A stretch of 64,000 nt of DNA from Mollicutes bacterium (GCA_022780025.1 JALEXS010000022.1:1256-65255), one strand, 5' to 3'; numbered from the stretch's first letter, positions 23,430-52,620 are shown. Made by a program: numbers and translations. The notes: generated by a model from the letters alone, not told the origin.

Positions 23430-23723
23430 TTATTTATCTCCTTGAGAATTTTCTTTTAGATAATTTATTATCTTTTCTTTATTTTCTTTTTTACTAGGTT
23501 TACATTTATCAGGAGTTGCTTCTTTTTTATTAACTAAAGCTTCAGCCATACCATTACATCCAGGATATCCACATGCTCCACAATTATATCCTGGTAACAT
23601 CTTAGTAACTTCTTCTATTCTAGTATCTTCTTTTACATACAAAATCTTGCTAAATATTGTAACCAATATTCCTAAAAGTAATGATAATCCTGCTAATATA
23701 AGTAAAGCATACAATATATACAT
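23430..23723 (-). CDS. rnfB: Minimal RnfB-like subunit: TM helix plus an N-terminal Fe-S domain only.
   Basis: LPGYNCGACGYPGC matches the RnfB N-terminal Fe-S (PF04060) motif. No ferredoxin-type CxxCxxCxxxCP clusters follow. Confidence 0.55.
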   Translation of the reverse strand: MYILYALLILAGLSLLLGILVTIFSKILYVKEDTRIEEVTKMLPGYNCGACGYPGCNGMAEALVNKKEATPDKCKPSKKENKEKIINYLKENSQGDK

Positions 23724-23929
23724 TATTTATCCTCCTTTTCTTCTTTATTTTTAATACCATTTAAATCACATTCATAATTTTTACAAGATGAACAATTTTC
23801 TTTATTAATTAATTTATCTTCACATCCTTTAGGAATTGGAGTTTTCTTATTTAAATAATATGTAATAAAGAAAATTGCAACTAATACTATAATTAATACA
23901 ATCGCTATCGTTAAATAAACCCATTTCAT
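23723..23929 (-). CDS. Small single-TM Cys-rich protein (FeoB-associated Cys-rich-like), inserted in the rnf operon.
   Basis: TM helix followed by C-x9-CSSC-x4-C. It is translationally coupled (stop/start overlap at 23723 and 23929/23932). Confidence 0.4.
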   Translation of the reverse strand: MKWVYLTIAIVLIIVLVAIFFITYYLNKKTPIPKGCEDKLINKENCSSCKNYECDLNGIKNKEEKEDK

Positions 23930-23931
23930 AA

Positions 23932-24516
23932 TTAATTTACAAAATTAAAGACTAATCCAACAAACGCTAAAGCCATAATTGCTGCTGTAATTAAAGCAAT
24001 TGGTAATCCTTTAAAAGCTTTAGGAACATTAGAATTATCAAGTCTAACTCGAATGCAACTAAAAACAAATATAACAAGCATAAATCCAAATGATGTACCT
24101 AATGCATTACCAACAGAATTTAAAAATGTTAAAGAATTATTTAATTGAACAGTACCTAAAACAGCGCAATTAGTAGTAATTAAAGGTAAATAAATACCTA
24201 ATGATTTATATAAAGATGGTGAAAATTTCTTAATAAATAAACCACATATTTGAACTAATGAAGCAATAACCAAAATAAAGACAATTGTATCCATAAACGG
24301 AATACCAGCAGGTACTAATACATATTGATAAATTGGCCAGCAAATAACTGTTGATAAAGTTATAACAAATAATACAGCAAAACCCATTCCAACTGAAGAT
24401 TCTGGTTTTTTACTAACGCCTAAAAAAGGACAAATACCTAAAAACTTAGATAAAATAGTATTTTGAACGAGCATTGCATTAATAATGCCTAAAAGAAATG
24501 CAACAAGATATTCCAT
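23932..24516 (-). CDS. rnfA: Rnf electron transport complex subunit A.
   Basis: NqrE/RnfA family. 6 TM, ~190 aa, positioned between rnfE and rnfB. Confidence 0.85.
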   Translation of the reverse strand: MEYLVAFLLGIINAMLVQNTILSKFLGICPFLGVSKKPESSVGMGFAVLFVITLSTVICWPIYQYVLVPAGIPFMDTIVFILVIASLVQICGLFIKKFSPSLYKSLGIYLPLITTNCAVLGTVQLNNSLTFLNSVGNALGTSFGFMLVIFVFSCIRVRLDNSNVPKAFKGLPIALITAAIMALAFVGLVFNFVN

Positions 24517-25265
24517 TATTTATTAGCTCCTTCCATTTCTTTAAGTTTAGCTTCTTCCTCTTTTTTCTTTTTCTTTAATAAAAGTTGAGTAGCTTTTTCA
24601 TTTTCTTCTTTACGATTCTTTTTAAATGCTAAAATCGCTAAAATTATTGCAAATACAATAAATGCTCCAGCTGGTTGAGTAAATAATCCAATTGAATAGT
24701 CATAAACTGGAATCCCAGCACTATTAACATAAGCTAATAAAGGAATAGAGAAACGAGGAATAAAAGTGAAAATATCACCAAAAGTAATCATACCAGTTCC
24801 TAATATTTCTCTAACTAAACCCATTAACATAATTGATAAAGAATAACCAACACCCATTCCTAAAGCATCAATGAGCGAATCTAAAGGTTTATTTTTACTA
24901 GCATAAGCTTCAGCTCTACCTAAAACGATACAATTAACAACAATTAAAGAGATATAAACGCCTAAAGTATCATAAAGTTCAGGAAGATAAGCGTTTGTAA
25001 GCATTCCAACAATTGTAACAAAAGTTGCAATAACTACAATATAAGCAGGAGTTTTAACTTCTTCAGGGATAATTTTTCTTAATAAAGATATTAATAAATT
25101 AGAACTAATTAAAACTATGGTAAATAAAATACCCATTCCTATAGCTGATTCTAAACTTCTTGTAGTAGCTAAAGCAGGACAAGTTCCTAAAATAGAAACA
25201 AATAAAGGATTTTCAGAGATAATTCCTTTTAAGAAATTCTCTTTATGTGAAGTTTTATTTTCCAT
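24516..25265 (-). CDS. rnfE: Rnf electron transport complex subunit E.
   Basis: NqrD/RnfE family with the motif GTCPALATT. Confidence 0.85.
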   Translation of the reverse strand: MENKTSHKENFLKGIISENPLFVSILGTCPALATTRSLESAIGMGILFTIVLISSNLLISLLRKIIPEEVKTPAYIVVIATFVTIVGMLTNAYLPELYDTLGVYISLIVVNCIVLGRAEAYASKNKPLDSLIDALGMGVGYSLSIMLMGLVREILGTGMITFGDIFTFIPRFSIPLLAYVNSAGIPVYDYSIGLFTQPAGAFIVFAIILAILAFKKNRKEENEKATQLLLKKKKKEEEAKLKEMEGANK

Positions 25266-25839
25266 TATTTAAAACCTCCTTAACATAACTAGAAGCACTT
25301 TCTGCCATCTCTTTTATAACAGTAGCTCCATAGGTTGCACCACAAGTAACATCAGTTAATAATCTATTTCCAGCATTATATTGATCAACATAATCTTTTT
25401 GAACTGTAGTTGCATATGATTCACTATTTTTAATAATTGAAATTCTTCCAAATGAATAATCATTATTAATAACTACGAGCATTGTAATTGTTCCATAATT
25501 ATTTTTATCAGAACCTTCAGTTTTAAATACATAACCATATTTATTATCGATATTTTCACCTTCATCACTAGATTTAGGATTCCAATAGCATAATAATTTT
25601 TGGTATTTTTTATCTAAATTCTTTAACTCAGTTTTATCACCAATAACTAAATCATTAGGAACGACTCCATTATTATCAATAAAAACTTCTTTAAGAGCTT
25701 TTTCTTCTTTTTCTTTTTCATGTTTAGTAATTGCATTACTAGTAAGCATATTAGTAGCAGCAATCAATAAAGCACTTATTGAACCAATAGCACATAAAAT
25801 TCCACCTACTTTTAAGCAATGTAATATATCTTTTTTCAT
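25255..25839 (-). CDS. rnfG: Rnf complex subunit G (FMN-binding).
   Basis: N-terminal TM, an FMN_bind-like domain, and a candidate flavinylation motif TCGATYGAT. Confidence 0.75.
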   Translation of the reverse strand: MKKDILHCLKVGGILCAIGSISALLIAATNMLTSNAITKHEKEKEEKALKEVFIDNNGVVPNDLVIGDKTELKNLDKKYQKLLCYWNPKSSDEGENIDNKYGYVFKTEGSDKNNYGTITMLVVINNDYSFGRISIIKNSESYATTVQKDYVDQYNAGNRLLTDVTCGATYGATVIKEMAESASSYVKEVLNNGK

Positions 25840-26963
25840 TATTTAACTACACCTCCAAAAAGTAAACTTATTATCATAATAATAGTTGGTATTACAAAAA
25901 TTAAAGCCATTGCAATTATATTTTTATAAGTATATTTAGTGTTGCTCCATTTTGGGAAATCAAGTACAGGAGTAAACATATTTGCTATAAGTAAAGAGAT
26001 AGCAACGCCTTCAGGAAGAGCTCCAAATAATCTAATAAGTACTGTTAAGCAACCACCAATCATTCCATACATTATTCTACTAGGTCTAGTTAAAGGTGAA
26101 GTTACTGGATCAGTAAACATAAATACACCGCCAAAAATTACACCTCCACTAAGTAATTCAAAAAGTGTAAAATGCATAACTTTGACTTGTGGAAGAATAG
26201 AATTTATACATAATCCAGCAATAATCATCATTATCAAAAACGTGCCAAAATATGAAAAAAGTATTCTAAAGTCCACTGTTTTTCTAAAAATCAAATAAAT
26301 TAAACCTAATAAAATAGTTACAGTATAAACTTCACCTAAAGTACCAGGCATCTTTCCTAAAAACATATCTAAGAAATTAACATTATTAATTGATTCATAT
26401 CCAAGACTCGAAATATTACCAAGTAAAGTTCCACCCATAGATGTATTTGGTACACTATTAAACCAAGAAGGTAAAGCTAAATATTTTCCATAGTTCGATC
26501 CAAATGATAATTTAGCAGCAACCATTCCAACAGCAGCCGGATTAAATATATTATTACCTAATCCTCCAAAAACTAATTTACCTAAAATTATTCCAATTAA
26601 TGCTCCAACAATTACGCTATAAATAGGTGCTCCACTTGGAGTAATTAATGTGTAAATCATAGCAGTAACAATAGGAGAAATTAAATTAACTAATTGATAA
26701 CGTCCTTTATAGGCATATTCAAATTTTTCCTTAAATGTATGTTTTTCCATATCTTTAGGTTTCATATGTGTTAACCCTATAAAAATAAATTCAGCTAAAC
26801 ACATTATTACTGCGCTAATAAAAAAATTAAGAAGAGTATTTAATGGAAAAATTACAGTACTAAAAATAAAAGTAGGTAATAATGCAATTATTACATCAAG
26901 CATCATTTGCCATGCACTATCTTTTCTTCTAATATGAGGAGATGATTCTTTTATAAATATCAT
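25839..26963 (-). CDS. rnfD: Rnf complex subunit D.
   Basis: NqrB/RnfD family polytopic membrane protein (NPAAVGM motif). Confidence 0.85.
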   Translation of the reverse strand: MIFIKESSPHIRRKDSAWQMMLDVIIALLPTFIFSTVIFPLNTLLNFFISAVIMCLAEFIFIGLTHMKPKDMEKHTFKEKFEYAYKGRYQLVNLISPIVTAMIYTLITPSGAPIYSVIVGALIGIILGKLVFGGLGNNIFNPAAVGMVAAKLSFGSNYGKYLALPSWFNSVPNTSMGGTLLGNISSLGYESINNVNFLDMFLGKMPGTLGEVYTVTILLGLIYLIFRKTVDFRILFSYFGTFLIMMIIAGLCINSILPQVKVMHFTLFELLSGGVIFGGVFMFTDPVTSPLTRPSRIMYGMIGGCLTVLIRLFGALPEGVAISLLIANMFTPVLDFPKWSNTKYTYKNIIAMALIFVIPTIIMIISLLFGGVVK

Positions 26964-28255
26964 AATTTTGCTATCACCTTTCCTTTTCTAACCCAATCTG
27001 TAACATTAATACGAGATGTACAAGAATATGTACATAATCCACATTCAATACACTTTAAAGGATTTAAAGTTTTTACTAATTGTCTATCTTTTGCTTTCAT
27101 TGCGTTCATAATTTCAACAGGTTTTAATCCAACAGGACAACTTAAAACACAGCTTCCACAACGAACACATGGTTCTTCAATATAATCTTTTTTATTTAAA
27201 ACAATAATTGAAGTAACAGTTTTTGTAATTATTACATCATCACTAGGAACACTAGCTCCCATCATAGGTCCACCCATAATAAAGACCTTATCGAAATTTT
27301 CATCCTTATATCCACCACATAATGGAATCAAATCGCTTAATGGAGTACCAACAACTACTCTAAAATTTTTAGGATATTTTATACCATCACCTGTTATAGT
27401 AATATTTCTTTTAACAACTGGCATATTATGTCTTAATGCTTTATAAATACCAACAATAGTTGATACATTAAAATTCATTATTCCGTATTCGCTAGGAAGA
27501 TGACCACTAGGTATTTCAATTCCTAAAGCTTCTTTAATCATTGCGATTTCCCAGCCTTGTGGATAATAATTTTTAACACATTTAACTTCGATATTTTCAT
27601 ATCCTTTTAATAATTCATGATAAACAAGTTTGATATCTTTATATTTAGATTTAATACAAATATAAGCCTTTTTAATATCAAAAATTTCCATTAAATATCT
27701 AATTCCGTTGATAACTCTATTTGGAAATTCGAGCATTAAACGGTGATCAGCAGTAATATAAGGCTCGCATTCAATACCATTAACTAATAATGTATCAATT
27801 TTCTTATCGATTGGTAATTTTATATAACTTGGGAATGAAGAACCACCTAATCCAACATTAGCAGTATCTTTAATAATTTTTATTGCTTCTTTTCTACTAA
27901 GGCTTGCAATTTGAGCTTCTGTTCTTTCAAAAACAGAATCATCACTAGTGTTTTTTAAATCATTCTTTATCTTAATAAATTCAACTTCTTTTCCACTACG
28001 ATGATAATGCTTTTCTAATCCTACAAATGTGCCAGAGACTGTACTATGAATAGGTTGATCAAAAAAAGGTCCATGACGCATACCAATTTTTTGAAAGCAC
28101 TTAACATAATCTCCTTCCTTAATAAAGAGTTCATATTTAGAACAACGTGTGTTTACAGTTGCAATAAAAACGTACTCAGGATGAGTATATCTAACTGTTG
28201 GTATAGAACCCATAAGTTCTTTGCTTTTACCAACTTTGGTAACTTTTTTAATCAT
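26960..28255 (-). CDS. rnfC: Rnf complex subunit C (NADH-binding, 2x[4Fe-4S]).
   Basis: CVRCGSCVLSCP and CIECGLCTYSC ferredoxin motifs plus the RnfC N-terminal barrel. It is the first gene of the operon. Confidence 0.85.
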   Translation of the reverse strand: MIKKVTKVGKSKELMGSIPTVRYTHPEYVFIATVNTRCSKYELFIKEGDYVKCFQKIGMRHGPFFDQPIHSTVSGTFVGLEKHYHRSGKEVEFIKIKNDLKNTSDDSVFERTEAQIASLSRKEAIKIIKDTANVGLGGSSFPSYIKLPIDKKIDTLLVNGIECEPYITADHRLMLEFPNRVINGIRYLMEIFDIKKAYICIKSKYKDIKLVYHELLKGYENIEVKCVKNYYPQGWEIAMIKEALGIEIPSGHLPSEYGIMNFNVSTIVGIYKALRHNMPVVKRNITITGDGIKYPKNFRVVVGTPLSDLIPLCGGYKDENFDKVFIMGGPMMGASVPSDDVIITKTVTSIIVLNKKDYIEEPCVRCGSCVLSCPVGLKPVEIMNAMKAKDRQLVKTLNPLKCIECGLCTYSCTSRINVTDWVRKGKVIAKL

Positions 28256-28516
28256 GTTAATATTATCTAATTTTAATGCATAACTTTCAAGGTAATAAAT
28301 ACAGAAAAAGTACCATTTTATGGGCTATTTTTGATTTATTTATTTTATAAAAATTATTTAAAATATTTATAAAATTTATTATCTAATTTCTTTATTAATA
28401 CAATATTTTTAGTCTATTTTTATTTCAAAATAGTACTCTTATTCAAAAAAAACCTGCAAAACTCGATTATTTTATATGAATTTGAAAAATTCATATTTAT
28501 TAAAGTTGACAAGCAA

Positions 28517-28547
28517 AATAAAAAGGATGATTTTATTCATCCTTTTT
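28517..28547 (-). terminator. Intrinsic terminator after the hypA-like gene (hairpin GGATGA-ttttat-TCATCC, flanked by A and T runs, so possibly bidirectional).
   Basis: aaaataaaaaGGATGAttttatTCATCCttttt. Confidence 0.5.
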
Positions 28548-28551
28548 CGCT

Positions 28552-28932
28552 TTATTTTTTTGTTTCTTCAGTTGTCTCTTCTACAACTTCAGGTACCAAA
28601 ATTTCTTTTATTAGAAACTCTCTTCCGGATAAGATATCTTTTTCAAATGAATTACATTTTGGACAATATCCTTCATTATCAATGATATTAAAAACCTCAC
28701 CGCAATTTTTACATTTTCCAAGACCAGGAATAACCTCAATTTTAAGTTTTGTATCTTTGAAGAATGTATGCTTATCAGTAGCAGCAGGCCAACATTCATC
28801 TAAATAAATTGGAATGACTCCAGATAACTGTCCAACTTGAAGAACTACAGTATCAACAGCTGGAAGATTTTCTTCTTCTACTACTTTTTCTAATGTATTA
28901 ACTATTTGAAATACAATTCCTAATTCATGCAT
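28552..28932 (-). CDS. hypA: HypA/HybF-like zinc-finger metallochaperone (hydrogenase nickel-incorporation-protein family).
   Basis: Starts MHELGIV. Overall pattern V.LQVGQLSGV.P..L, C-terminal CKNCG-x13-CPKC zinc site, 126 aa. Confidence 0.6.
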   Translation of the reverse strand: MHELGIVFQIVNTLEKVVEEENLPAVDTVVLQVGQLSGVIPIYLDECWPAATDKHTFFKDTKLKIEVIPGLGKCKNCGEVFNIIDNEGYCPKCNSFEKDILSGREFLIKEILVPEVVEETTEETKK

Positions 28933-28935
28933 ATG

Positions 28936-31593
28936 TTATTTTTTAGGTGTAATAGGTTTTATGATTATTTTACCAGCACGTTGAATAGCATGTTTTGCCA
29001 TTTCGATTGGTAATTTCTCATAAACTTTACCTTCAACTGTTTTCTCGTTTCTTACTAATTTAATAGCGTCAAATTTACATTTAGTAGTACATTGTCCACA
29101 GCCAATACACATATATGTATCAACTTTTGCAGCACCACAACCTAAACAACGAGATGTTTCAAGTTTCATTTGTTCTTCTGTGAATGTAGCTCTAGTGTCT
29201 TTGAATGTACCATGATTTTCTTTAATTGATAATGGACGTTGACGTTTTACATTATCATAGCCAGATATTTCGAGGTTATCTTTATCAAGAGAGATATATT
29301 TTCTTCTATCTCTACCATATTTTTGAGTTTGTCCTGGCCAAACAGCTCTATGAATAGAAATAGCACCTTCTTTACCACTAGCAATTGCATCAATTGCAAA
29401 TTTTGGACCAGTTACACAATCGCCACCAGCAATAATATTACTTTCACCAGTAACATAGAATTCATCAACAGATACAGTATTATTTTTATTTAACTTAACA
29501 TTTGTACCTTCAAGTAATTTACCCCATTCAATTCTTTGTCCAATTGAAACAAGAATATAATCAGCTTCGACAGTTATTACGTCATTTTCATCATATTTTG
29601 GAGCAAATTTACCTTCTTCGTTAAATACGGAGACACATTTTTTAAATTCTATACCAGTGACTTTACCATCTTTAACAATAATACGTTTTGGTCCGTATCC
29701 ATTATTAATAATGACATTTTCACTTTCTGCTTCTTCGATTTCTTCTTCAAGTGCAGGCATTTCTTCTCTTTTCTCTAAAGAGTACATGTTAACACTTTCA
29801 GCACCAACTCTAGTAGCAGTTCTAGCAACGTCAATTGCAACATTTCCACCACCAATAACAACTACTTTACCATGTAAAGGTTTTTGTTTATTAAGGGCTA
29901 CATTTTTAAGGAAATCGACACCGAGGATAACACCTTCGCCATCTTCACCTTCAATATTAAGTTTTCTTCCTTGGCTAGCACCAATAGCAAGATAGAATCC
30001 ATCAAATCCTTCTTTTTTAAGTTGATCGATTGTTTTATCTTTACCAACTTCTATACCTGTTATAAATTTAACGCCTAATTCACGTAAAATATCAATTTCA
30101 GCTTCGACTACTTCTTTTTCAAGTCTGAAAGAAGGAATTCCAAGTGTCATCATACCACCTAATTTTTCTTCTTTTTCAAAGACAGTAACATCATAACCAT
30201 CAACAGCTAAATAATATGCCGCACTTAATCCTGCAGGACCAGAACCTATAACTGCGATATGTTTGGATGTATAATCATGTTTTTTGGTAGGAATAAAACG
30301 ATCGCTACTATTTTTATCTTTATCTGCAATAAATTTTTTAATTTCATCAATTGCAACGCCTTTATCAATTTGACCACGTGTACAAGCATCTTCACATTTG
30401 TGAGGACAAATTCTACCACAAATTGCAGGGAATGGATTTTCTTTCTTAATTAATTCTAAAGCATCTTTATATCTACCTTGAGAAGCTAAACGAATATAAC
30501 CTTGAACTGCTATATGAGCAGGACATGCTGTTTTACATGGAGCAGTTCCAGTTTCTAAAGTATCTTCTCTATTTTCACGATAATTTACATTCCATTTGTC
30601 TTTACCCCAAATTGTATTTCTGACTTTATCATAATACTCTGTTTTTAATGGAGTTTTTGTACATAATTTTTGTCCGAGTTTAATAGCATTAACAGGGCAA
30701 TTTTCAACACATTGACCACATGCAACGCAATTATCTTGGTTAATTTCAGCATGATAATTACTTCTTTCAGCATCTGGACAATTAAACATATTTGATATAC
30801 GAATTGCAAAGCATGAACAACCACAGCAATTACAAATTGCAGCAGATTCTCCAGCGCCTTCTAAGTTAGGCATTTGATGCATTAATCCGTTTTCTTCTGC
30901 TTTTCTAAAAATTTCTTCAGCTTCTTGTCTAGTGATTTGTCTAGCTTTACCTGTTTTAATAAAATATTCAGCACCACTTCCAAGTTGTACACACATTTCA
31001 TCTTCTAAATGTCCGCAACCTTCGCCAAGTAATCTTCTTGAACGGCGACATGAACAAGGAGAAACAGAATAAGTATCATATTTATCTAAATAATAAGAGA
31101 TTTTGTCATAAGGAATAGCTTTAGTATCACTTGCAATTGCAGATTCAATTGGAATAACTCTCATCATACTTTGACCATAAGGAAGCATAGTTCCCATAGT
31201 TTCCATAAGACCACGAGTATAAGCTTCAAAAGCTTTAGCTATTTCAGGGTGTTCTTTAACGTTTTCAGTACAGCCAACCATCATTTCAAGAGTGCCTGGA
31301 GCAAAAATTTGCATGAAATATAATGTTTCATTATTTTCTGTATAAATTTTAATAACTCCTAGATATCCAAGACGATCAAGAATTTTCTTTGTTTCTTCCT
31401 CGGATTTACCACATTTTTTTGCTACATATTGAAGATTTCTTGGTTTTCTTAAACCTAAAGATGCTGCAACATCAGCTTCTTCATCAGTTAAACAATTTAA
31501 AGCGTAATATTCTGGTGATTCTTCAGTAATTTTTGTCATCATTCCTGCTAAACCACCCATTACTTTAACTAAACGTAAGATACTTTTCCTCAT
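28936..31593 (-). CDS. 885-aa multidomain Fe-S flavoprotein. N-terminal Cys-rich domain, a 4Fe-4S ferredoxin, a GltD/DPD-like FAD/NAD(P)H oxidoreductase module, and a C-terminal 2x[4Fe-4S] domain (YgfK/SudA-like).
   Basis: CAVCGQCVENCP; GltD N-terminal Fe-S region CKTACPAHIAVQGY...NPFPAICGRICPHKCEDACTRG; dinucleotide folds IAVIGSGPAGLSAAYYLA and VVVIGGGNVAIDVA; C-terminal CLGCGAAK...CIGCGQCTTKC. It is adjacent to and co-oriented with the hypA-like gene and a TetR gene. Confidence 0.6.
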   Translation of the reverse strand: MRKSILRLVKVMGGLAGMMTKITEESPEYYALNCLTDEEADVAASLGLRKPRNLQYVAKKCGKSEEETKKILDRLGYLGVIKIYTENNETLYFMQIFAPGTLEMMVGCTENVKEHPEIAKAFEAYTRGLMETMGTMLPYGQSMMRVIPIESAIASDTKAIPYDKISYYLDKYDTYSVSPCSCRRSRRLLGEGCGHLEDEMCVQLGSGAEYFIKTGKARQITRQEAEEIFRKAEENGLMHQMPNLEGAGESAAICNCCGCSCFAIRISNMFNCPDAERSNYHAEINQDNCVACGQCVENCPVNAIKLGQKLCTKTPLKTEYYDKVRNTIWGKDKWNVNYRENREDTLETGTAPCKTACPAHIAVQGYIRLASQGRYKDALELIKKENPFPAICGRICPHKCEDACTRGQIDKGVAIDEIKKFIADKDKNSSDRFIPTKKHDYTSKHIAVIGSGPAGLSAAYYLAVDGYDVTVFEKEEKLGGMMTLGIPSFRLEKEVVEAEIDILRELGVKFITGIEVGKDKTIDQLKKEGFDGFYLAIGASQGRKLNIEGEDGEGVILGVDFLKNVALNKQKPLHGKVVVIGGGNVAIDVARTATRVGAESVNMYSLEKREEMPALEEEIEEAESENVIINNGYGPKRIIVKDGKVTGIEFKKCVSVFNEEGKFAPKYDENDVITVEADYILVSIGQRIEWGKLLEGTNVKLNKNNTVSVDEFYVTGESNIIAGGDCVTGPKFAIDAIASGKEGAISIHRAVWPGQTQKYGRDRRKYISLDKDNLEISGYDNVKRQRPLSIKENHGTFKDTRATFTEEQMKLETSRCLGCGAAKVDTYMCIGCGQCTTKCKFDAIKLVRNEKTVEGKVYEKLPIEMAKHAIQRAGKIIIKPITPKK

Positions 31594-31647
31594 AATATTT
31601 CCCCCTATTACTTTTTATACTTAGTTTGATAATGAATAATTATCTAT

Positions 31648-32181
31648 TTAACACAAAATTTGATATTCTTCTGGTATTGTGCGATCAATTTGTTGAGCTA
31701 ATTCAACTTTTGAAATTGGTCTTCCATCAAATAACCAGTCTCTTACAGTATTTACACAACCATATATAACAATTTTGGCAGAGTAAATTTCATTTTTTCC
31801 TAAATAATGGCCGTGTTTTTCAAAAAATTTATCATTCATTCTATTAAAAGAATAATCGAAAACAAATTTTTCATATGAATTAATACCTTCTGATAAAAAG
31901 GCATTTTTAACTCTTTTAGAATCTTTCTCTACAAAAGTTAGAATGTTAATAAATAGTTCGCCCCAAGATTTAAATTTAGTTTTTTCAAAAATTTCATCGA
32001 GTACAAGCTTGTAATTATAATTCATGACATCATATTTATCTAAAAACAATCGATAAAAAGTTGACTTTGAAACACCAGCTTCAGCCACTATCATATTAAC
32101 GGTTATGTTATCGATTGAATACTTTCTAGATAAGGTATTAAAACAATCAATAATATGTTTTTTTGTAATTTCTTTTGCCAT
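31648..32181 (-). CDS. TetR/AcrR-family transcriptional regulator.
   Basis: N-terminal HTH TVNMIVAEAGVSKSTFYRLF. Confidence 0.75.
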   Translation of the reverse strand: MAKEITKKHIIDCFNTLSRKYSIDNITVNMIVAEAGVSKSTFYRLFLDKYDVMNYNYKLVLDEIFEKTKFKSWGELFINILTFVEKDSKRVKNAFLSEGINSYEKFVFDYSFNRMNDKFFEKHGHYLGKNEIYSAKIVIYGCVNTVRDWLFDGRPISKVELAQQIDRTIPEEYQILC

Positions 32182-32235: not shown

Positions 32236-32377
32236 CTTTTCAATTAAATGATACTAATTGATATAAATGTCTCATTATAATACTAATTTTAAATTAAGTT
32301 CTTCCTTATTGTCAATGTAATCCATTATAATAAATACTAAATAAAACGACTATTTGTCGGAAGGAAAGGAAGTCTAC

Positions 32378-33379
32378 ATGGACAACGAAAAAAAATTGCA
32401 AAGAGCCGAAAGACTCAAAAAAATGTTTGCTCCTGGTCCTGAAGCAATGGACTACAAAGTCACTCCAGGTCTCGACACATTTTTAAAGTGGTTAATGTTC
32501 ACTGTAACTATTTTAGGTATTTCTGTTTTAACATCTAAATACCAAGCTTACGGAAACATTCCATTTAACATCATTTGTGGTATCATTGTTTTATTTGCAA
32601 TGAAACCTGTTTTCTTTGAAGCACTCAAATTAAGTACTTTACTCGTAGGAAGAATTATTGTCTTATTTGCTTGTTTCTCATTATTGCCTGGCGAAATATT
32701 CGTCATGATAGTTTTAACCTTATATATTATTAATATATTAGAAGCTACAATGACTGATTTCTTCAAAAATAAGCAATATTTTAATGGTGTTTCAGGTTTA
32801 TTTATTGCTGCTGGAGCATCAGCATTCTTCTTAGGATCAACATGGGGAGTCACTCAAGTTGCTAATTCACCAATCTATTTTATCGATGGATATTCACAAC
32901 TTGGTTCTTTTGTTCCATTTACATCCGATTATTTCGTATCTCAAACAACTATATTAGGTAATGTCACTGGTACAACTACAGTTGGTATCGCAATCACAGT
33001 TGCTATGATGATTGCTTATACAATTTGGAACTGGTTATTCGTTACTGGTGAATTCTCTTCATCAGTTGCATTAATGCACATTGGTTTCTTACTTGCTCCT
33101 ATTTTTGGCGTATTTGTAGGACCACTTGTTGGTATGGGTAGATTTGGTTATCTTCCAGATCCAGGTCTTTGGTTATTATTTAGAGCTAGTACACTCACAT
33201 TCGGTGGTATTCTCCAAATTGGTGGCAAAAGATGGTTTGAAGAAAACTTCAACTATGAACCATTTGATAGAAAGGTTACATATATTAAACAAAGTAAGCC
33301 TATACAAATCACATGTATGTGTATTTGTTGTGCATTGATGATTTTTGCAATCGTTTTTGGTTTTCTTCCTAAAATGTAA
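32378..33379 (+). CDS. Polytopic membrane protein of unknown function.
   Basis: Start moved to the ATG at 32378 (MDNEKKL), preceded by GGAAAGGAAG. The track's first ATG lies inside the RBS. About 8 predicted TM segments. Confidence 0.45.
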   Translation: MDNEKKLQRAERLKKMFAPGPEAMDYKVTPGLDTFLKWLMFTVTILGISVLTSKYQAYGNIPFNIICGIIVLFAMKPVFFEALKLSTLLVGRIIVLFACFSLLPGEIFVMIVLTLYIINILEATMTDFFKNKQYFNGVSGLFIAAGASAFFLGSTWGVTQVANSPIYFIDGYSQLGSFVPFTSDYFVSQTTILGNVTGTTTVGIAITVAMMIAYTIWNWLFVTGEFSSSVALMHIGFLLAPIFGVFVGPLVGMGRFGYLPDPGLWLLFRASTLTFGGILQIGGKRWFEENFNYEPFDRKVTYIKQSKPIQITCMCICCALMIFAIVFGFLPKM

Positions 33380-33548: not shown

Positions 33549-34466
33549 TTAATCTTCGTAATTTTCTGGTAATACAAAGTTTAAGGCTAATGGCAAAATT
33601 TTAATATCTACTTTTGCTTCTCTAAATACTTCACCATCAATTGCATAAGCAACAGGATGAGGTGATTCAATTACTACGTGTTTACATTTTTTATAGATGA
33701 TTTTGTCTTTGAGTTTTTTATTTTCAAGATGTTCACCTTTTTTATAAACAGACATTAAACCTGACGCACTAAATCTAGATATTTTTTTAACTAAACAAAC
33801 ATCAATTAAACCATCATCTATTAAACTTAATGGAGCACATTTAAACCCTCCGCCATAAGTGTGTCCATTAGCTACAGCAATTAATAATCCTTTATCATCA
33901 AATATAACTTCATCGTCTAAAGTTACTTTCATTGGTGTCGACATATTAAATAATAAAGATGAAACAGCTGCTAAATTATAAGCTCCTTTTCCACTCATTA
34001 ATTGCCATCTTTTGATTTTGTGCATTTTAAACGTTACTTCACCATCAAAACCAAAATTGAATATATTAACGGAGACTTTATCATTTGCTTTTAATAAATC
34101 AACTTTTTTAGTCTTTCCATGAATTAATTTATCTAAATCTCTAAAACCTTGATGATCTTTAAAACTTTTTATAAAATCATTGCCACTTCCAGATGGAAAA
34201 CATGCTACTTCTACATTTTCATATTCATAAGCACCATTTATAACATCATGTAAAGAACCATCACCGCCAATAGCATAAAATCTATAAATTTCATCTTTAG
34301 GATGAGTTTCTAGATATTTTTTTACAAATTCACGACCATCACCTTTGCATGTTGTTTTATAAACTTCATAATCTATAACGCCATCATATTTTTTTAAATC
34401 ATTAGAAATATCACTAAATCGATCCTTTTTCCCGGCGTTTGGATTAATAACAAATATATGTTTCAT
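33549..34466 (-). CDS. Diacylglycerol-kinase-family lipid kinase (DgkB/YegS-like, DAGK_cat).
   Basis: MKHIFVINPNAGKK and IGGDGSLHDVINGA catalytic motifs. Confidence 0.75.
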   Translation of the reverse strand: MKHIFVINPNAGKKDRFSDISNDLKKYDGVIDYEVYKTTCKGDGREFVKKYLETHPKDEIYRFYAIGGDGSLHDVINGAYEYENVEVACFPSGSGNDFIKSFKDHQGFRDLDKLIHGKTKKVDLLKANDKVSVNIFNFGFDGEVTFKMHKIKRWQLMSGKGAYNLAAVSSLLFNMSTPMKVTLDDEVIFDDKGLLIAVANGHTYGGGFKCAPLSLIDDGLIDVCLVKKISRFSASGLMSVYKKGEHLENKKLKDKIIYKKCKHVVIESPHPVAYAIDGEVFREAKVDIKILPLALNFVLPENYED

Positions 34467-34485
34467 ACATTAAACCCTTTCAAAA

Positions 34486-36243
34486 TTATTTTTTATGTAA
34501 GAAGTCTATTTTTTTATCCTTTCCAATCTTTTCCTCTTCTTTTAAATCTAAGCCTAATGTTCCGCCTGGATTCATTAAATATTCTGGGTCAAAATGATTT
34601 TTTAATACTTTGAATAATTCAAATTCGTTCTTTCCTAAAGAGCCTTCAATCCATGGTGCAAATGCTTTACCAATACCATGGTGGTGAGACATAGATGCAC
34701 CAGATTTTTGTATAGCATCTAATATACCATCTTGATAATTCTTATATTCTTCCAAATCAGTCATATGAGCAATAAAAATAAAATATAAATTAGCACCTTG
34801 AGGATAAGCATGTGACATATGTGTCATACAAATTGTATTAGGTCTTGATTTACAGAATGCTCTAACATCACGGTGAACTTGTGACATATTAGACCAGTTT
34901 ACACTACATTCTAATGTATCAGTCATAATACCAAAATCTTGCATAGAATCTCTTAAATATGGATCATTGAATCTACCTTTTTCCCATGATTTAGTTACAA
35001 ATCCAGTTAAACTCATGCCCTTATATTGTTTTGCAATTCTACGAATACATTTAGCAACATTCTTAGCAAAGCCTTTTTCACCATCAGAGAATCCTAAAAA
35101 TAGACACATTTCATTTTCTTTAAATCCTTTGATTTTAAATAATTTCATTAAAGGAGTTTCATCAATTCCGTAAAGTCTTAACATAATTGATGTTTCTTCT
35201 GGATCACTTAATCTAAAAACTGAAGAGTATCCACCTTCGCATTGCATCATTTCTCTAGCTGCTTTTTGAGCAGTTTCCCAATCTTTAAACATATATGAAT
35301 AGCGTTTTCTATTTTCAGGCATATAACGGAATACACGAAGTGTAACTTCAGTTAAAATACCAAAAGTTCCTTCACTACCCATCATAATTTGATTAATACT
35401 TGGACCAGTAGCTTCTCTTGGAGCGTGTGTAGTAACAATTTTACCAACAGGGGTTACATATTCTTGTGATAAAACAATATCTTCGATTTTTCCATAATAA
35501 GTAGAGTTTTGGCCAGCACCACGAGTAACAACCCATCCACCTACAGAAGAATATTCAAAACTTTGAGGGAAATGACCACAAGTATAAGGTCTTTTAGCAT
35601 TAAATAATTTAACAGCATTATTTAAAGTTTCTTCAAGTTTAGGTCCAGACATACCAGTTTGAACAGTAATGGTTTGATCAATTTCGTTAAATTTAATAAC
35701 TTTATTGTAGCGAAGTCTCATATCAAAAGAGACACCGCCTTTCATACACTCGACACCACGAGTAACACTAGAACCGCCACCATAAACATACATTGGAATC
35801 TTGTGTTTTATACAGTAATTAACTATTTTTTCAATTTGTTCTTTATTATCAGGATAAATAACAACATCAGGTATATTTTCAATCTTCTTTTCACGAAGTC
35901 TTAATAAATCATACATTGTTTTTCCATAAGCTACACTTAATCTTGCATAGTCATCATCACGAACAAATTCATCACCGACAATTTCTTTAAAGAACTTAAT
36001 GTCTTCATCAATAACGATTTTTTTCTTTATATCAAATTTAACTTCATCAAGGCCTAAATCCTCATTATATTGTTTAAAATTATCATTAGTCATGTTAAAT
36101 TTTTCTTTTAACATACCATATAATGTTTCTTTAGGTGTTTTAATAAAGTTTGGGTCTCCCCATTTAAAAATTGAACGATAAGAATTATTAGGAATTTCAC
36201 CTTTAAACCATTTTGGTTCGAATCCTTTATAAGGTTTTGACAT
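34486..36243 (-). CDS. FAD-linked oxidase resembling alkyldihydroxyacetonephosphate synthase (AGPS-like).
   Basis: FAD_binding_4 motif VIYPDNKEQIEKIVNYCIKHKIPMYVYGGGSSV. C-terminal SHHHGIGK (an HHH loop typical of AGPS, not the HxGDGNxH of GlcD/D-LDH). 585 aa with an AGPS-like N-terminal extension (FKWGDP). Confidence 0.55.
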   Translation of the reverse strand: MSKPYKGFEPKWFKGEIPNNSYRSIFKWGDPNFIKTPKETLYGMLKEKFNMTNDNFKQYNEDLGLDEVKFDIKKKIVIDEDIKFFKEIVGDEFVRDDDYARLSVAYGKTMYDLLRLREKKIENIPDVVIYPDNKEQIEKIVNYCIKHKIPMYVYGGGSSVTRGVECMKGGVSFDMRLRYNKVIKFNEIDQTITVQTGMSGPKLEETLNNAVKLFNAKRPYTCGHFPQSFEYSSVGGWVVTRGAGQNSTYYGKIEDIVLSQEYVTPVGKIVTTHAPREATGPSINQIMMGSEGTFGILTEVTLRVFRYMPENRKRYSYMFKDWETAQKAAREMMQCEGGYSSVFRLSDPEETSIMLRLYGIDETPLMKLFKIKGFKENEMCLFLGFSDGEKGFAKNVAKCIRRIAKQYKGMSLTGFVTKSWEKGRFNDPYLRDSMQDFGIMTDTLECSVNWSNMSQVHRDVRAFCKSRPNTICMTHMSHAYPQGANLYFIFIAHMTDLEEYKNYQDGILDAIQKSGASMSHHHGIGKAFAPWIEGSLGKNEFELFKVLKNHFDPEYLMNPGGTLGLDLKEEEKIGKDKKIDFLHKK

Positions 36244-36261
36244 AATATTTTTCTCCTTTTT

Positions 36262-36606
36262 TTATATCATTGATGTTGTTGTTATAATATCAACACCAGT
36301 ATTTAAGACATTTTTAATTACTACTGAATTAATTTCTAATCTTTCGTTTATAATTACTTTTTTAAGAACTTCTAATAATTCAGGTATAAGATTTTTATCA
36401 ATTTCTCCATTTGTTCTTACACTTACTACAGGAAATTCTTCAATTGTTGTTTTTACTGAACTACACACACTTCTTTTTGGATGATGGAATTCATTAAAAG
36501 CATATTCTTTTCCTCTAGGACATTTATTGCCTTCACATGTATTATTAATTTCATCATATTTTAGATGACATCCGTTTGGACATACGATACAAATATATTC
36601 TTTCAT
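36262..36606 (-). CDS. DUF1667-domain protein.
   Basis: N-terminal Cys cluster CIVCPNGC...C-x4-C. It is always the third gene after two FAD oxidoreductases, and here its start overlaps the upstream gene's stop. Confidence 0.45.
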   Translation of the reverse strand: MKEYICIVCPNGCHLKYDEINNTCEGNKCPRGKEYAFNEFHHPKRSVCSSVKTTIEEFPVVSVRTNGEIDKNLIPELLEVLKKVIINERLEINSVVIKNVLNTGVDIITTTSMI

Positions 36607-37841
36607 TATTTAGTGTCCTCCAAAATAAATTCGATTTCATCATTATTTTTTACTGTAAGTAGAATTTTTTCCATTTCAGGTGGTCTTAAATGTGAATATC
36701 TTCTTTTTAATAAAACTTCACCTTTTTGTTTTATTAATAATGTTTTATCTTTATATTCATCTCTTGCTCTAAAATAGAAAGTCATCTTTTCAGTAGATTT
36801 ATGAAAATCAATAAAAGAAGGTACTACATAGCCGAAATGACTATCAAATTTAACTGGTTTTAAATCTCTTTTATTATTTAATAATTTAGATGCATCATTT
36901 GCAGCAATTTCTCCGCTTTCAGAAACATAATCTGCTAAATCATTAACATGCATTGCATTTCCACAAGAATAGACGTTGTTTACTAATGTTTCGAAAGTTT
37001 GATCAACATCAGGGCCTTTAGTAAATCTATTCAAAGGGACATTAATTTCTTTTGCTAATTCGTTTTCAGGAATTAATCCTACAGATAATATTAAACTATC
37101 ACATTTAATAATTTCTTCACTACCCTTAATCGGATTCATTTTATTATCAACTTTAGCAACTTCAATAGCTTCTAATCTATCTTTTCCAAAAACACGAGTA
37201 ACTGTATGTGATAAATATAAAGGTATATTAAAATCGGTTAAACATTGTGCAATATTTCTACTTAATCCGCTTGGAGTAGACTTTACTTCATATACTCCTT
37301 TAACATGAGCACCTTCTAAAGTTAATCTACGAGCCATTATTAAACCAATGTCTCCACTTCCTAAAATAACAACTTCTTTACAAGGCATTTTTCCTAAAAT
37401 ATTTATATAATATTGAGCTTGTCCAGCTGTCATAACACCTGTTGGATTTGTTCCATGTATAGAAATTTGTTTACTAGTTCTTTCTCTACATCCTGTTGCT
37501 AAAATTAATTTCTTTCCTTTAGCTTTGTTAACACCGTTTTCATTAGCAAAAGTAACAATTACTTCGTTATTTTCACTAGTAATATTAGTAACAAATGTAT
37601 TTTTTAATACAGTAACATTGGTCTTTTTTAATTTTTCAATTTCTCTATTTGCGTATTCTGGTCCTGATAATTTTTCTTTAAATTTTGTGACACCAAAGCC
37701 GTCATGAATACATTGTTTTAATATTCCTCCAAGTTTATTTTCTCTTTCAATTAATAAGACTTTAGTATTTTCGCTTGCTTTAATACTTGCAGCAAGTCCA
37801 CCAGGTCCACCACCTATAACAATAATATCAAAGTTTTCCAT
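36606..37841 (-). CDS. NAD(P)/FAD-dependent pyridine-nucleotide-disulfide-family oxidoreductase.
   Basis: IIVIGGGPGGLAA dinucleotide fold plus a second VVILGSGDIGL fold. Confidence 0.7.
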   Translation of the reverse strand: MENFDIIVIGGGPGGLAASIKASENTKVLLIERENKLGGILKQCIHDGFGVTKFKEKLSGPEYANREIEKLKKTNVTVLKNTFVTNITSENNEVIVTFANENGVNKAKGKKLILATGCRERTSKQISIHGTNPTGVMTAGQAQYYINILGKMPCKEVVILGSGDIGLIMARRLTLEGAHVKGVYEVKSTPSGLSRNIAQCLTDFNIPLYLSHTVTRVFGKDRLEAIEVAKVDNKMNPIKGSEEIIKCDSLILSVGLIPENELAKEINVPLNRFTKGPDVDQTFETLVNNVYSCGNAMHVNDLADYVSESGEIAANDASKLLNNKRDLKPVKFDSHFGYVVPSFIDFHKSTEKMTFYFRARDEYKDKTLLIKQKGEVLLKRRYSHLRPPEMEKILLTVKNNDEIEFILEDTK

Positions 37842-37844
37842 TAT

Positions 37845-39545
37845 CTACTCCTTGCTATCTCTATAAATTAAAGTATCTTCGCCTTTTTTATGTACGTCTT
37901 CTAATTTAATATTGTTTTCTTTTGCAAATAATGAAGCTACATTTGGTTGGCAAAAGCCTCCTTGACATCTACCCATTCCTGCACGTACTCTTCTTTTAAT
38001 TCCATCTAATGTAGAAGGTCTTATTACTGAATTTATTGCATCAATAATTTCACCTTCACTAATTTCTTCGCATCTACAAATAATATGACCATATTTTGGA
38101 TTTGATTTAATTAATTTATCTCTTTCTTCAATAGATAATTTTCTTGTTTGTACTATGCCTTTTCTAATAGGATTAAAATTAGCTTTTTTACCAACATTTA
38201 ATTTTGTATTGACAATTCTTGCGACTTCTTCTCCAATCGATGGGGCGGCTGTTAATCCTGGTGATTGTATTCCAGCTGCATGAACAATGTTTTTAGTCCA
38301 TTTGCCCGCATGAACAATAAAATCTTCTTCATAAGTTGGGGCTCTTACACCTGAGAAATAAGTAATCGTATCTGATTTTCTTAAATTTGGTACGGTTTTT
38401 GCATGCTTTTCAAATAATTGAGAGACTATTTCATTTGAAGTTGTATAGTCTTCTTTTTCAGGAATTTCAATAGCATTAGGTCCAACTAAGGTGTTATCAT
38501 CAACAGTTGGAATGATTCCTCCGCCTTTAGAATGAGATTTCTTTTTAGCTTTTTTAATTGAATAAATTTGAATACCAGACTTTGATAATTGACTTCTTAC
38601 ACTCTTATCCATTAAAACATCAGTCCCTTTACGAGGATGAATTGAGAAGAATTTATCACCAGCTAAATCAGCAATATCATCACTAAAAACGCCAGCAGCA
38701 TTAACTACTATTTTTGGATAAATTGTTCCTCTATTTGTAATTACTTTTTTAATAATATGATCTTCTACAACTATGTCACTAACATAAGTATTAAAACTTA
38801 CTTCAGCACCATTAATAACAGCAGATTCTGCTAATCCAATTGTAAAATTATAAGGACAAATACTACCAGCATGAGGGAAAAATACACCAAATTTAACTTC
38901 ATCAGATAAATTAGGTTCCATTTTAAGTAATTTCTTTCTACTTAATAAACGCCAATCTTTAATATGATTTTGTTTACATCTTATAGTAAAAAATAAACGA
39001 ATAATTGGTCTTAATAAATTAGATTTAAAACAAACAGTTTGTCCATCTTCGTGATACTCAACATCAATGTCTTTACATAAATCTTTAATAATCTCTTTAG
39101 ATCTAATTAAATGTTTTAATTTTTCACTTCCTTTGTGTAAATCTACGCCAACATGGATACATCCATCGTTTCTAGAAGATGCTTGTAATGCTAAGTCTTC
39201 ACCTTTTTCTACAAGTAATGCTGATAAATTATATTTAGATAATTCTCTTAATATAGAGGCACCAATTACTCCTCCACCTATAACTAAAACATCTACTTTT
39301 TTATTATCTAAACTCAAATCATTAATAGAAGGTATATAAATATTAGGTTTATGTCCTATTAATTTAATATTATTAACTACATGAGAATAAAGTTTAGTTT
39401 TACTTACCATCAAACCAATATCAACAATTTCATCCCAACTCGAGAGTTCTCCACTTAGAAAAATAATGTCTTCCTTTTCTTCTAAATTGATTGAAGAGTA
39501 TCCTTTTTTTAATAATAATTTATAAATTTTATCTATCTTCTTCAT
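37845..39545 (-). CDS. FAD-dependent oxidoreductase (GlpA/LhgO-like) with a C-terminal BFD-like [2Fe-2S] domain.
   Basis: VLVIGGGVIGASILREL DAO fold. C-terminal ICRCEEISEGEI...GMGRCQGGFCQ (BFD-like). Confidence 0.7.
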   Translation of the reverse strand: MKKIDKIYKLLLKKGYSSINLEEKEDIIFLSGELSSWDEIVDIGLMVSKTKLYSHVVNNIKLIGHKPNIYIPSINDLSLDNKKVDVLVIGGGVIGASILRELSKYNLSALLVEKGEDLALQASSRNDGCIHVGVDLHKGSEKLKHLIRSKEIIKDLCKDIDVEYHEDGQTVCFKSNLLRPIIRLFFTIRCKQNHIKDWRLLSRKKLLKMEPNLSDEVKFGVFFPHAGSICPYNFTIGLAESAVINGAEVSFNTYVSDIVVEDHIIKKVITNRGTIYPKIVVNAAGVFSDDIADLAGDKFFSIHPRKGTDVLMDKSVRSQLSKSGIQIYSIKKAKKKSHSKGGGIIPTVDDNTLVGPNAIEIPEKEDYTTSNEIVSQLFEKHAKTVPNLRKSDTITYFSGVRAPTYEEDFIVHAGKWTKNIVHAAGIQSPGLTAAPSIGEEVARIVNTKLNVGKKANFNPIRKGIVQTRKLSIEERDKLIKSNPKYGHIICRCEEISEGEIIDAINSVIRPSTLDGIKRRVRAGMGRCQGGFCQPNVASLFAKENNIKLEDVHKKGEDTLIYRDSKE

Positions 39546-39546
39546 T

Positions 39547-40098
39547 TTATAACCTCGATAACATTTTCTTTATATCTTCAATTTCTTCTTGAGCTTTATT
39601 ACCTAATACTGTTTTAACTATTAAGCCTTCAATAATAACAAGGATAATATCGGCAATTTCTTCATGATTTTCACGATTTTTATAAACTTGTTTTACACCT
39701 TCAACAATTTTATTTTTCCAATCTTTCCATAAACTTAATAATTTATTTTTAATAGAATCATCTCTCATACATTCATTAATTAGATATATATGAATTTTTG
39801 AATGGTTATATAATTCTGTACTTTTATAAAATACAACATCTAAAAATCTCTCTATTGTAAGATTATCTTTATGTTTTATAAGCCAAGCATCATAATCTCT
39901 TTCTAAATCTTTAAAGTGCATGTCTATAATTGCTGAGATAATGTCGTCTTTAGCTTTAAAATGATAGTATAAACTACCTGTTGAAATATCTAAAAAATTT
40001 GCAATATCTCTAAGTGAAAAACTATTTACTCCTTTAGAAGTAATTAATTCTTCAGCAGCGAGAATTATTTTTTCTCTTGTATTATTATCTTCACTCAT
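39547..40098 (-). CDS. TetR-family transcriptional regulator.
   Basis: HTH FSLRDIANFLDISTGSLYYHF. Strong GGGAGG RBS. Confidence 0.75.
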   Translation of the reverse strand: MSEDNNTREKIILAAEELITSKGVNSFSLRDIANFLDISTGSLYYHFKAKDDIISAIIDMHFKDLERDYDAWLIKHKDNLTIERFLDVVFYKSTELYNHSKIHIYLINECMRDDSIKNKLLSLWKDWKNKIVEGVKQVYKNRENHEEIADIILVIIEGLIVKTVLGNKAQEEIEDIKKMLSRL

Positions 40099-52162: not shown

Positions 52163-52180
52163 TTATCTCCAATCTGTCGC

Positions 52181-52229: not shown

Positions 52230-52290
52230 TAAATTGCGGTTTTCTATTATTAGAAGGGAGACATCATTCCCATTAGTTATTCTAGTACTA

Positions 52291-52407: not shown

Positions 52408-52418
52408 ATATAATTAAA

Positions 52419-52510: not shown

Positions 52511-52513
52511 TAA

Positions 52514-52590: not shown

Positions 52591-52620
52591 GCAAATCGAT
52601 ATTGATTGACTTAATAATTT

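Follow-up and report, generated by a model that had tools for sequence, protein, structure and literature searches.

A probable IsrA-family iron-sulfur flavoprotein encoded beside a dedicated HypA in a Mollicutes genome

The closest described system to the locus considered here is an isoprene-induced five-gene operon of Acetobacterium wieringae ISORED-2, which encodes the 901-amino-acid (aa) protein IsrA, two HypAs, HypB and a ferredoxin, and in which IsrA, HypA and HypB are induced by isoprene (PMC10134865). IsrA (VUZ27132.1) is a putative isoprene reductase, its isoprene-reducing activity having been inferred from proteomics; it combines four canonical [4Fe-4S] sites and an FAD/NAD(P)H module with an unannotated N-terminal region of ~270 aa that holds six clustered cysteines, with CxC motifs at C180-C182 and C254-C256 (PMC10134865). 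Homologues of ~900 aa, termed “clade 9”, occur in Firmicutes, Spirochaetes, Tenericutes and other phyla, and a neighbourhood network of 988 homologues gave frequencies within five genes of 0.73 for HypA, 0.56 for HypB, 0.40 for DUF5692 and 0.21 for TetR_N (PMC10134865). The HypB partner carries CH-Xn-C nickel ligands, one Acetobacterium subclade (cluster II) is flanked by “TetR and a hypothetical protein”, and an oleate hydratase neighbours the IsrA homologue of A. woodii (PMC10134865). A. wieringae ISORED-2 has neither a [NiFe] hydrogenase nor hypCDEF, and separate maturases serve its other nickel enzymes; Kronen et al. (2023) put forward the hypothesis that IsrA receives nickel from the Hyp proteins at its six-cysteine (Cys6) site (PMC10134865). 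In Pelotomaculum schinkii growing on isoprene, hypA is up 373-fold and hypB 585-fold (2026 preprints). Our literature search for biochemical follow-up on the IsrA family or DUF5692 returned only PMC10134865 and two 2026 Pelotomaculum preprints. Here we analyze a 64-kb stretch of the genome of a Mollicutes bacterium (GCA_022780025.1, JALEXS010000022.1:1256-65255; “the window”, numbered from its first letter), which probably encodes a four-gene module of this kind: an IsrA “clade 9” Fe-S flavoprotein reductase, its own dedicated HypA, a TetR regulator, and a DUF5692-like membrane protein.

Three genes of the module lie in order on the minus strand of the window, which has a GC content of ~27%: a TetR-family regulator gene (32181..31648, 177 aa), the oxidoreductase gene (31593..28936, 885 aa), and a gene for a HypA-family metallochaperone (28932..28552, 126 aa). 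A preliminary description of this DNA had reported the three in one orientation and 3 nucleotides (nt) apart. The genes and their orientation are as reported, and so is the 3-nt spacing between the oxidoreductase gene and hypA, whereas TetR and the oxidoreductase gene are separated by 54 nt. That description had overlooked the fourth component, a gene for a 341-aa polytopic membrane protein that diverges from the TetR gene on the plus strand (32354..33379). It had also remarked that no hydrogenase or urease genes lie nearby, which agrees with a Pfam scan covering all open reading frames (ORFs) of 100 aa or more in the window: besides this hypA, the scan found no hydrogenase, hyp, urease, CODH, Lar or known nickel-transporter gene. 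As for metal homeostasis in general, no nickel- or cobalt-specific importer is recognisable in the 64 kb, where the sole such genes encode a fused FeoB (781 aa, 53347..55692) and a DtxR-type iron-dependent repressor (56272..56652).

The oxidoreductase carries the Pfam domains Fer4 (residues 283-305), Fer4_20 (348-428) and Pyr_redox_2 (445-740), followed by a C-terminal Fer4-type motif (828-857). Overall, it is built from an N-domain (a winged helix and a Cys6 subdomain), a ferredoxin split in two, and a GltD/NfnB-type module that holds two [4Fe-4S] clusters as well as sites for FAD and NAD(P)H, the dinucleotide motifs being GSGPAG at 450 and GGGNVA at 581. Full-length identity to 81 homologues of ~890-950 aa ranges from 44 to 77%. 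Across 82 full-length homologues, 16 [4Fe-4S] cysteines, four clusters’ worth, are at least 99% conserved (289/292/295/299, 353/357/392/396/400/404/816/819 and 829/832/835/839), and their arrangement points to a ferredoxin fold in two parts, residues 289-299 and 816-839, with the GltD-type module inserted between them. The sequence match to the PDB spans residues 292-822 only (9bov_A at 1.9e-99; NfnB; GltD), and the likeness to NfnB, GltD, the N-terminal module of dihydropyrimidine dehydrogenase, 9bov_A and 8oh5_C comes with E-values of 1e-50 to 1e-99. The protein nevertheless falls short of the NCBIfam cut-offs for these families, with scores of 474 versus 516 for PRK12771 and 295 versus 472 for TIGR01316, and with TIGR01317 and TIGR01318 far under theirs. 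Judged by these profiles, the module is homologous to NfnB/GltD/YgfK-type flavoproteins, while the protein stands outside those curated families. The Cys-rich N-domain, the ferredoxin and the GltD/DPD-type FAD-NAD(P)H module of the preliminary description were thus broadly recovered, but three of its finer assignments were not. Membership of the YgfK/SudA group fails at the cut-off of TIGR03315 (YgfK; 289 versus 835); a CCG domain (HdrB-type, PF02754) gave no Pfam match, either in the whole protein at E ≤ 0.01 or in the N-domain alone at E ≤ 1, and by Foldseek the N-domain models matched no PDB chain, HdrB included; and the supposed C-terminal dicluster ferredoxin is incomplete, since it consists of only one CxxCxxCxxxC motif plus a CxxC.

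Unlike NfnB and GltD, the window protein adds a 280-aa N-domain with the Cys6 site and a split ferredoxin, and it lacks a partner of the NfnA, GltB or molybdopterin kind. When residues 1-285 were searched against 1.84 billion cluster representatives, 1843 relatives turned up at E ≤ 1e-3, among them fused proteins of ~880-945 aa and stand-alone proteins of ~355-420 aa. Six cysteines, C180, C182, C201, C254, C256 and C261, are invariant both in 76 diverse N-domain homologues and in the 82 full-length homologues; the codons of this Cys6 site (residues 180-261) lie at 30811..31056 on the minus strand. Near-invariant among the 76 sequences are also R183 (96%), E103 (95%) and H239 (88%), whereas of the accessory residues C193, H195, C257 and C259 the three cysteines are conserved in only 70-86%. 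An AlphaFold model of residues 1-345 was confident over residues 1-280, with a mean predicted local distance difference test (pLDDT) score of 79.9, and the Cys6 subdomain modelled alone (135-285) reached 83.5. Compared with the PDB by Foldseek, the whole N-domain had no match at E ≤ 1e-3, its winged-helix part bore a weak likeness to MarR/ArsR, and the Cys6 subdomain found no relative (best E = 0.97, probability 0.02). Kronen et al. drew analogies to the ACS A-cluster, the nitrogenase P-cluster and double-cubane proteins, which catalyze chemistry on small apolar molecules, and with which the window enzyme would share a Cys-rich pocket ending an Fe-S wire and a predicted substrate tunnel. Since the Cys6 subdomain has no fold relative in the PDB, this resemblance does not amount to a fold relationship and is at most one of local geometry. 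We propose the Cys6 site as the acceptor of HypA-delivered metal and as the likely catalytic centre.

Set against the published system, the window enzyme resembles the IsrA “clade 9” proteins in its length of ~900 aa, its unannotated N-domain, its Cys6 at identical residue numbers, its four [4Fe-4S] sites and FAD/NAD(P)H module, the hypA immediately downstream, and its occurrence in a Mollicutes-like lineage. The flanking TetR and hypothetical protein recall Acetobacterium cluster II. Unlike the isr operon, the window lacks hypB, a second hypA, and an N-domain-plus-ferredoxin protein of the VUZ27135.1 type, and its HypA has an extra acidic C-terminal tail. On the strength of these likenesses, the window protein very probably belongs to the IsrA family.

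The small downstream protein had been called HypA-like, and in Pfam it is clearly HypA: PF01155 scores 101.8 bits against a cut-off of 28.9 and aligns end to end (profile positions 1-110 of 112). It begins with the expected M1-H2-E3 and has the two CxxC pairs of the zinc motif, although their spacer is of 12 residues and not 13 as had been given (C74-x2-C77-x12-C90-x2-C93). Residues 1-108 align with Helicobacter pylori HypA (6g81/2kdx; E = 5e-4), with MHE and zinc motifs in register. The more demanding test came out differently: the protein misses the cut-off of each of the six NCBIfam HypA models matched, including the equivalog TIGR00100 (69.3 versus 88.1 bits). MHE and C74/C77/C90/C93 are invariant in 82 IsrA-linked HypAs. 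The acidic C-terminal tail, which is lineage-specific (residues 115-126, PEVVEETTEETKK; 28552..28596), is absent from ~90-98% of these 82 and longer in close relatives, whose proteins measure 128-140 aa; conceivably it compensates for the missing HypB or binds metal. In sum, the window HypA resembles the HypA/HypB systems of [NiFe] hydrogenase and H. pylori urease in its PF01155 domain, its MHE start, its two CxxC pairs, and the HypB-type GTPase partner of most of its relatives; it differs from them in that the proposed client is neither a hydrogenase large subunit nor a urease, and in that hypCDEF, structural hydrogenase genes and HypB are absent from the window.

The preliminary description had left open whether the pair co-occurs in relatives. 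It does: the adjacency of oxidoreductase and hypA recurs in more than 100 independent loci, far beyond chance. In GTDB species genomes, scanning turned up at least 491 confirmed stretches, from which 80 loci (75 non-redundant) were retrieved, and more than 590 further stretches were confirmed in metagenomes, all census figures being lower bounds because simple ORF calling erred in some loci of higher GC content (e.g., L001). The 80 loci come from Lacrimispora, Blautia, Hungatella, Treponema, Eubacterium barkeri, Oscillospiraceae and Bacteroidaceae metagenome-assembled genomes (MAGs), among others, but none of them from Acetobacterium or Pelotomaculum. HypA occupies the position directly downstream (+1) in 52 of the 75 non-redundant loci and HypB the position directly upstream (−1) in 30; a GntR regulator, taking the place of TetR, is found upstream in 28, and DUF5692 or the membrane protein family in ~13. 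The +1 position of hypA is kept across loci labelled Bacillota, Spirochaetota, Bacteroidota and Thermotogota. Homologues 65-77% identical to the window enzyme have the same oxidoreductase-hypA pair, often after a HypB-type GTPase of 222-224 aa (PF02492, P-loop SSPGSGKTT), and some of these loci are TetR-flanked as well. In closer relatives, whose HypA is 74% identical, the window layout is reproduced exactly, the divergent membrane protein included.

A second set of homologues, found in metagenomes and here called class B, has CNCxxxxC in place of CNCCGCSC and GEGSG or GEGYT in place of GEGCGH. Among 63 full-length class B genes, HypA lies directly downstream in 45 of the 59 loci with room for it, and in 25 of 55 the gene immediately upstream is HypB. 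We had considered C193, H195, C257 and C259 as HypA-dependent nickel ligands, and rejected this idea because class B enzymes without them keep HypA and HypB. Since HypA persists without the accessory residues, the common feature of the HypA-linked enzymes is the invariant Cys6 core.

The link between the two proteins also shows in the HypAs themselves. Seven distinct contexts of the HypA subfamily (L001, L004, L007, L010 and L172-L174; 51-74% identity to the window HypA where listed) all adjoin an IsrA-like gene, and no hydrogenase or urease gene was found in any of the seven. Three of these HypAs, of ~50% identity and labelled Caldicellulosiruptor, Clostridium sp. MSJ-4 and Thermotogae, directly follow an IsrA-like gene of ~895 aa; their database annotation reads “hydrogenase maturation”. 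This HypA subfamily is thus dedicated to the IsrA-like enzyme, lying beside IsrA-like genes in every context sampled. Across 82 pairs, the pairwise divergences of enzyme and HypA are strongly correlated (Pearson 0.93, Spearman 0.84).

Gene content, cofactor motifs, synteny, co-divergence, the dedicated HypA subfamily and the lack of hydrogenase genes in the window are direct observations, and from them we infer that the oxidoreductase is quite probably the client of HypA, and the Cys6 site probably both metal acceptor and catalytic site. That the delivered metal is nickel specifically we rate at slightly better than even. A hydrocarbon- or lipid-type substrate with a C=C bond is a tentative suggestion, prompted by hints from relatives. 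In the mechanism we envisage, NAD(P)H would reduce the FAD of the GltD/NfnB-type module, and electrons would then run along the four [4Fe-4S] clusters, including the split ferredoxin (~289-299 and ~816-839), to arrive at the N-terminal Cys6 metallocentre, where a hydrophobic unsaturated substrate would be reduced (for IsrA, the conjugated C=C of isoprene). During maturation the MHE N-terminus of HypA would deliver the metal, most likely Ni(II), to Cys6, assisted by HypB in most relatives. TetR would repress the unit until a small-molecule inducer, probably the substrate, arrives, and the membrane protein may have a part in supplying or handling either the hydrophobic substrate or the metal. 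Of the two readings offered in the preliminary description, synteny, co-divergence and the dedicated HypA subfamily favour that of a metallocentre-insertion client, although its novelty does not hold, as the HypA link, the TetR link and the occurrence in Tenericutes were already described (PMC10134865).

Several points weigh against this interpretation. About a quarter of the loci have no adjacent HypA, and of the 30 class B loci flanked by 3 kb or more on each side, 5 lack both HypA and HypB, so that the chaperone is either not universally required or encoded elsewhere. The correlation of distances is partly phylogenetic, and what it demonstrates is co-inheritance, not physical interaction. 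The window enzyme was compared with IsrA through the published description of the latter (architecture and residue numbers). Nickel at Cys6 is hypothetical in the literature too (PMC10134865). Homologues of 47-49% identity in other Acetobacterium species do not reduce isoprene (PMC10134865), and the substrate can therefore not be transferred from IsrA to the window enzyme. Finally, tblastn with three HypB queries found neither hypB nor a remnant of it in the 64-kb window, and if HypB were truly absent genome-wide, canonical GTP-driven nickel transfer could not operate as described. The closest relative with a complete genome, L012 (CP091734.1, a 1.53-Mb chromosome labelled “Clostridiales bacterium nC29_bin.3”; N-domain 79% identical to that of the window), has the gene order membrane protein, oxidoreductase, hypA, hypB, which indicates that hypB was recently lost or relocated in the window lineage.

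Among the alternatives, the one that survives best, though we consider it unlikely, is that HypA, with or without HypB, matures the oxidoreductase with another metal (zinc, cobalt or iron), or scaffolds an all-iron Fe-S “cluster V” at Cys6. Consistent with this, the metal content of family members is so far hypothetical, the HypA subfamily diverges from hydrogenase HypAs both in its TIGR00100 score and in its distant match to the H. pylori protein, and HypB is missing nearby in some lineages, the window included. Fe-S clusters, on the other hand, are usually assembled by the Isc, Suf or Nif machinery rather than by Hyp proteins, and MHE, which is 100% conserved in the 82 IsrA-linked HypAs, is the nickel site of characterised HypAs. 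The all-cysteine pocket would fit P-cluster-like or double-cubane-like Fe-S clusters as well (PMC10134865), but the partner GTPase of the relatives is of HypB type, with its SSPGSGKTT P-loop, a length of ~222 aa, and reported CH-Xn-C nickel ligands (PMC10134865).

It is less probable still that the protein is a plain NfnB/GltD/SudA-type NAD(P)H:ferredoxin or NAD(P)H:acceptor oxidoreductase, possibly bifurcating, with the N-domain serving as a regulatory winged helix or as an extra Fe-S appendage. What it resembles most is indeed NfnB, GltD and the 9bov and 8oh5 flavin module, PRK12771 reaches 474 bits, the N-domain starts with a winged helix, and an Rnf complex is encoded immediately downstream in the window. 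Every NCBIfam cut-off for the GltD, NfnB-like and YgfK families is missed, however, no NfnA or GltB gene is adjacent, the near-universal dedicated HypA/HypB would be left unexplained, and the invariance of Cys6 over 30-60% identity argues for an essential site. The Rnf adjacency, moreover, is specific to the window and broken by a terminator-like hairpin on the minus strand (28520..28547), which begins 5 nt past the hypA stop and has a perfect 11-bp stem, a 6-nt loop and a T-run; such sites are enriched in the region (8 found versus 1.8 expected). Because of this hairpin, which closes the unit, and because rnfC has a promoter-like site of its own (28290..28262), we regard the rnfCDGEA operon as a separate unit. 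The genes found downstream in relatives differ (MFS in L007, hypB in L012, glutamine synthetase in L010), and we rejected a functional link to the Rnf operon on all three counts.

That the adjacency is incidental, with HypA serving a [NiFe] hydrogenase, a urease or another nickel enzyme elsewhere and the flavoprotein as a redox partner (the second reading of the preliminary description) or unrelated, is very improbable: hydrogenase genes may lie beyond the 64 kb visible here, databases label the protein a hydrogenase maturation factor, and P. schinkii has group 4 [NiFe] hydrogenases, with its authors weighing a hydrogenase-centred model (2026 preprints), but hypA keeps its +1 position across phyla, HypA and enzyme co-diverge, all seven sampled subfamily HypAs adjoin an IsrA-like gene in loci without hydrogenase genes, and A. 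wieringae ISORED-2 has hyp genes without a [NiFe] hydrogenase or hypCDEF (PMC10134865).

The remaining two genes of the proposed IsrA-HypA module are its regulator and its membrane protein. The TetR protein scores 26.1 bits for TetR_N (cut-off 24) and 54.8 for TetR_C_8 (cut-off 26.1) and shares 62.5% identity with the TetR that occupies this position in L007; in L174, a TetR with TetR_C_8 precedes hypB and the oxidoreductase gene. The best promoter-like match for the TetR-oxidoreductase-hypA unit is TTGACA-18-TAAAAT (32286..32315, minus strand, 11 of 12 positions), a weak candidate given that the region has 31 promoter-like sites against a shuffle mean of 32. An AT-rich palindrome that overlaps its −10 element (32282-32299) is a possible TetR operator. 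The 341-aa membrane protein has no Pfam match, DUF5692 (PF18948) included, at E ≤ 0.1. It is 79% identical to its L007 counterpart and 41% identical to the product of a 281/286-aa gene after hypA in L001 and L004, and the L001 homologue scores 14.9 bits for DUF5692, under the cut-off of 27. Comparison of the membrane family with the DUF5692 profile by hhalign gave a probability of 93.7% (E = 1.9e-7, 201 columns), from profiles that are shallow (Neff ~1.8). We thus judge the protein, by sequence profiles, to be a distant relative of DUF5692 rather than a member, and a conserved accessory in a subset of lineages.

Hints as to the class of substrate come from relatives alone: the isoprene induction in Acetobacterium, the oleate hydratase of A. 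woodii, and genes found in L001 and L004. In the 65%-identical relatives L001-L006 (e.g., L001:13915-16611 and L004:5853-8548), two more genes follow hypA and the membrane protein gene; in L001 and L004 they encode a 509-aa CrtI/CrtD-like flavoprotein (PDB 4rep, gamma-carotene desaturase, 3.6e-16) and a 387-aa FNR-type reductase with a 2Fe-2S domain. The block of L001-L003 sits amid mobile-element genes (recombinase, ParB, DUF3801 and DDE transposase). In L043 and L052, hypA is followed by the gene of a CooC-like P-loop ATPase (256 aa) and two more genes (~396-421 and 512-515 aa), which we provisionally labelled by eye as 2-hydroxyacyl-CoA-dehydratase/benzoyl-CoA-reductase-like. In 4 loci the ATPase cluster is found at +2, while the other two come within four genes of the enzyme, one in 8 loci and the other in 7; a second metal-insertion ATPase beside an IsrA homologue may be informative.

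Other features of the window deserve brief mention. Upstream of the unit, a lipid/glycerol block (33549..40098, minus strand) encodes a DAGK/YegS-type lipid kinase, a 585-aa FAD_binding_4/FAD-oxidase_C protein and a second TetR, together with a DUF1667, Pyr_redox_2 and DAO+BFD trio resembling an anaerobic glycerol-3-phosphate dehydrogenase-like system. With the PI-PLC-X gene at 19008..20042, this block makes a thematic link to hydrophobic or lipid substrates possible. The rnfC-D-G-E-A cluster (23430..28255, minus strand) ends in ORFs of 68 and 97 aa, and ApbE, NusG_II and Hpre_diP_synt_I genes come next; the 97-aa ORF (23430..23723) has an RnfB-type N-terminal membrane anchor and CxxCGxxGC Fe-S motif with no polyferredoxin domain, and looks like a minimal RnfB. 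A fluoride riboswitch (RF01734, 44.7 bits; 52209..52280, minus strand) lies just downstream of a cluster of five tRNA genes (52331-52777) and directly upstream of a gene of the Na_H_Exchanger family (50947..52182), not of crcB or eriC-F. The oxidoreductase is 100% identical to an NCBI protein labelled “MAG: Candidatus Onthovivens sp.”, and Onthovivens is listed with a predicted reassignment of CGG from Arg to Trp (PMC13092985, 2026). In 52 ORFs of the window (18,832 codons), CGG does not occur, CGT occurs 92 times and AGA 374 times, and TGA serves as stop twice. Mistranslation of our proteins through such a reassignment is ruled out, as the window contains no CGG codon, and the lack of CGG is what a codon left unassigned, or since recaptured, could also show.

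The pairing of this oxidoreductase with HypA is real and conserved, but it was already described in 2023, and the window protein adds one member to the family. What our analysis adds is that the HypA link does not depend on the accessory cysteines, that the HypA subfamily is dedicated, that the membrane partner is DUF5692-like, that the Cys6 subdomain is without a solved relative, and that the unit can be compact and HypB-less; these results sharpen the published hypothesis to the invariant Cys6 core and do not change it. If the hypothesis is true, the family would be another entry on the short list of nickel-dependent enzymes, Hyp-type nickel trafficking would reach beyond hydrogenase and urease, and the reduction of unactivated C=C bonds, for which there are few biological precedents, would be at issue. 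The window unit, being compact, HypB-less, TetR-controlled and from a small genome, could suit heterologous expression. Going further, and speculatively, the IsrA family might form a new class of nickel enzymes, with a Ni or Ni-Fe-S centre held by six cysteines in a fold without a solved relative and served by a private HypA, which in gut Bacilli with reduced genomes would load it alone; unsaturated hydrophobic compounds from diet or host (isoprenoids, polyenes, conjugated lipids) might then act as electron sinks, with the DUF5692-like protein handling the substrate. Since the family is abundant in anaerobes of gut and rumen (at least 491 genome and more than 590 metagenome stretches), its substrates could matter for the fate of dietary isoprenoids and lipids and for anaerobic electron-sink ecology.

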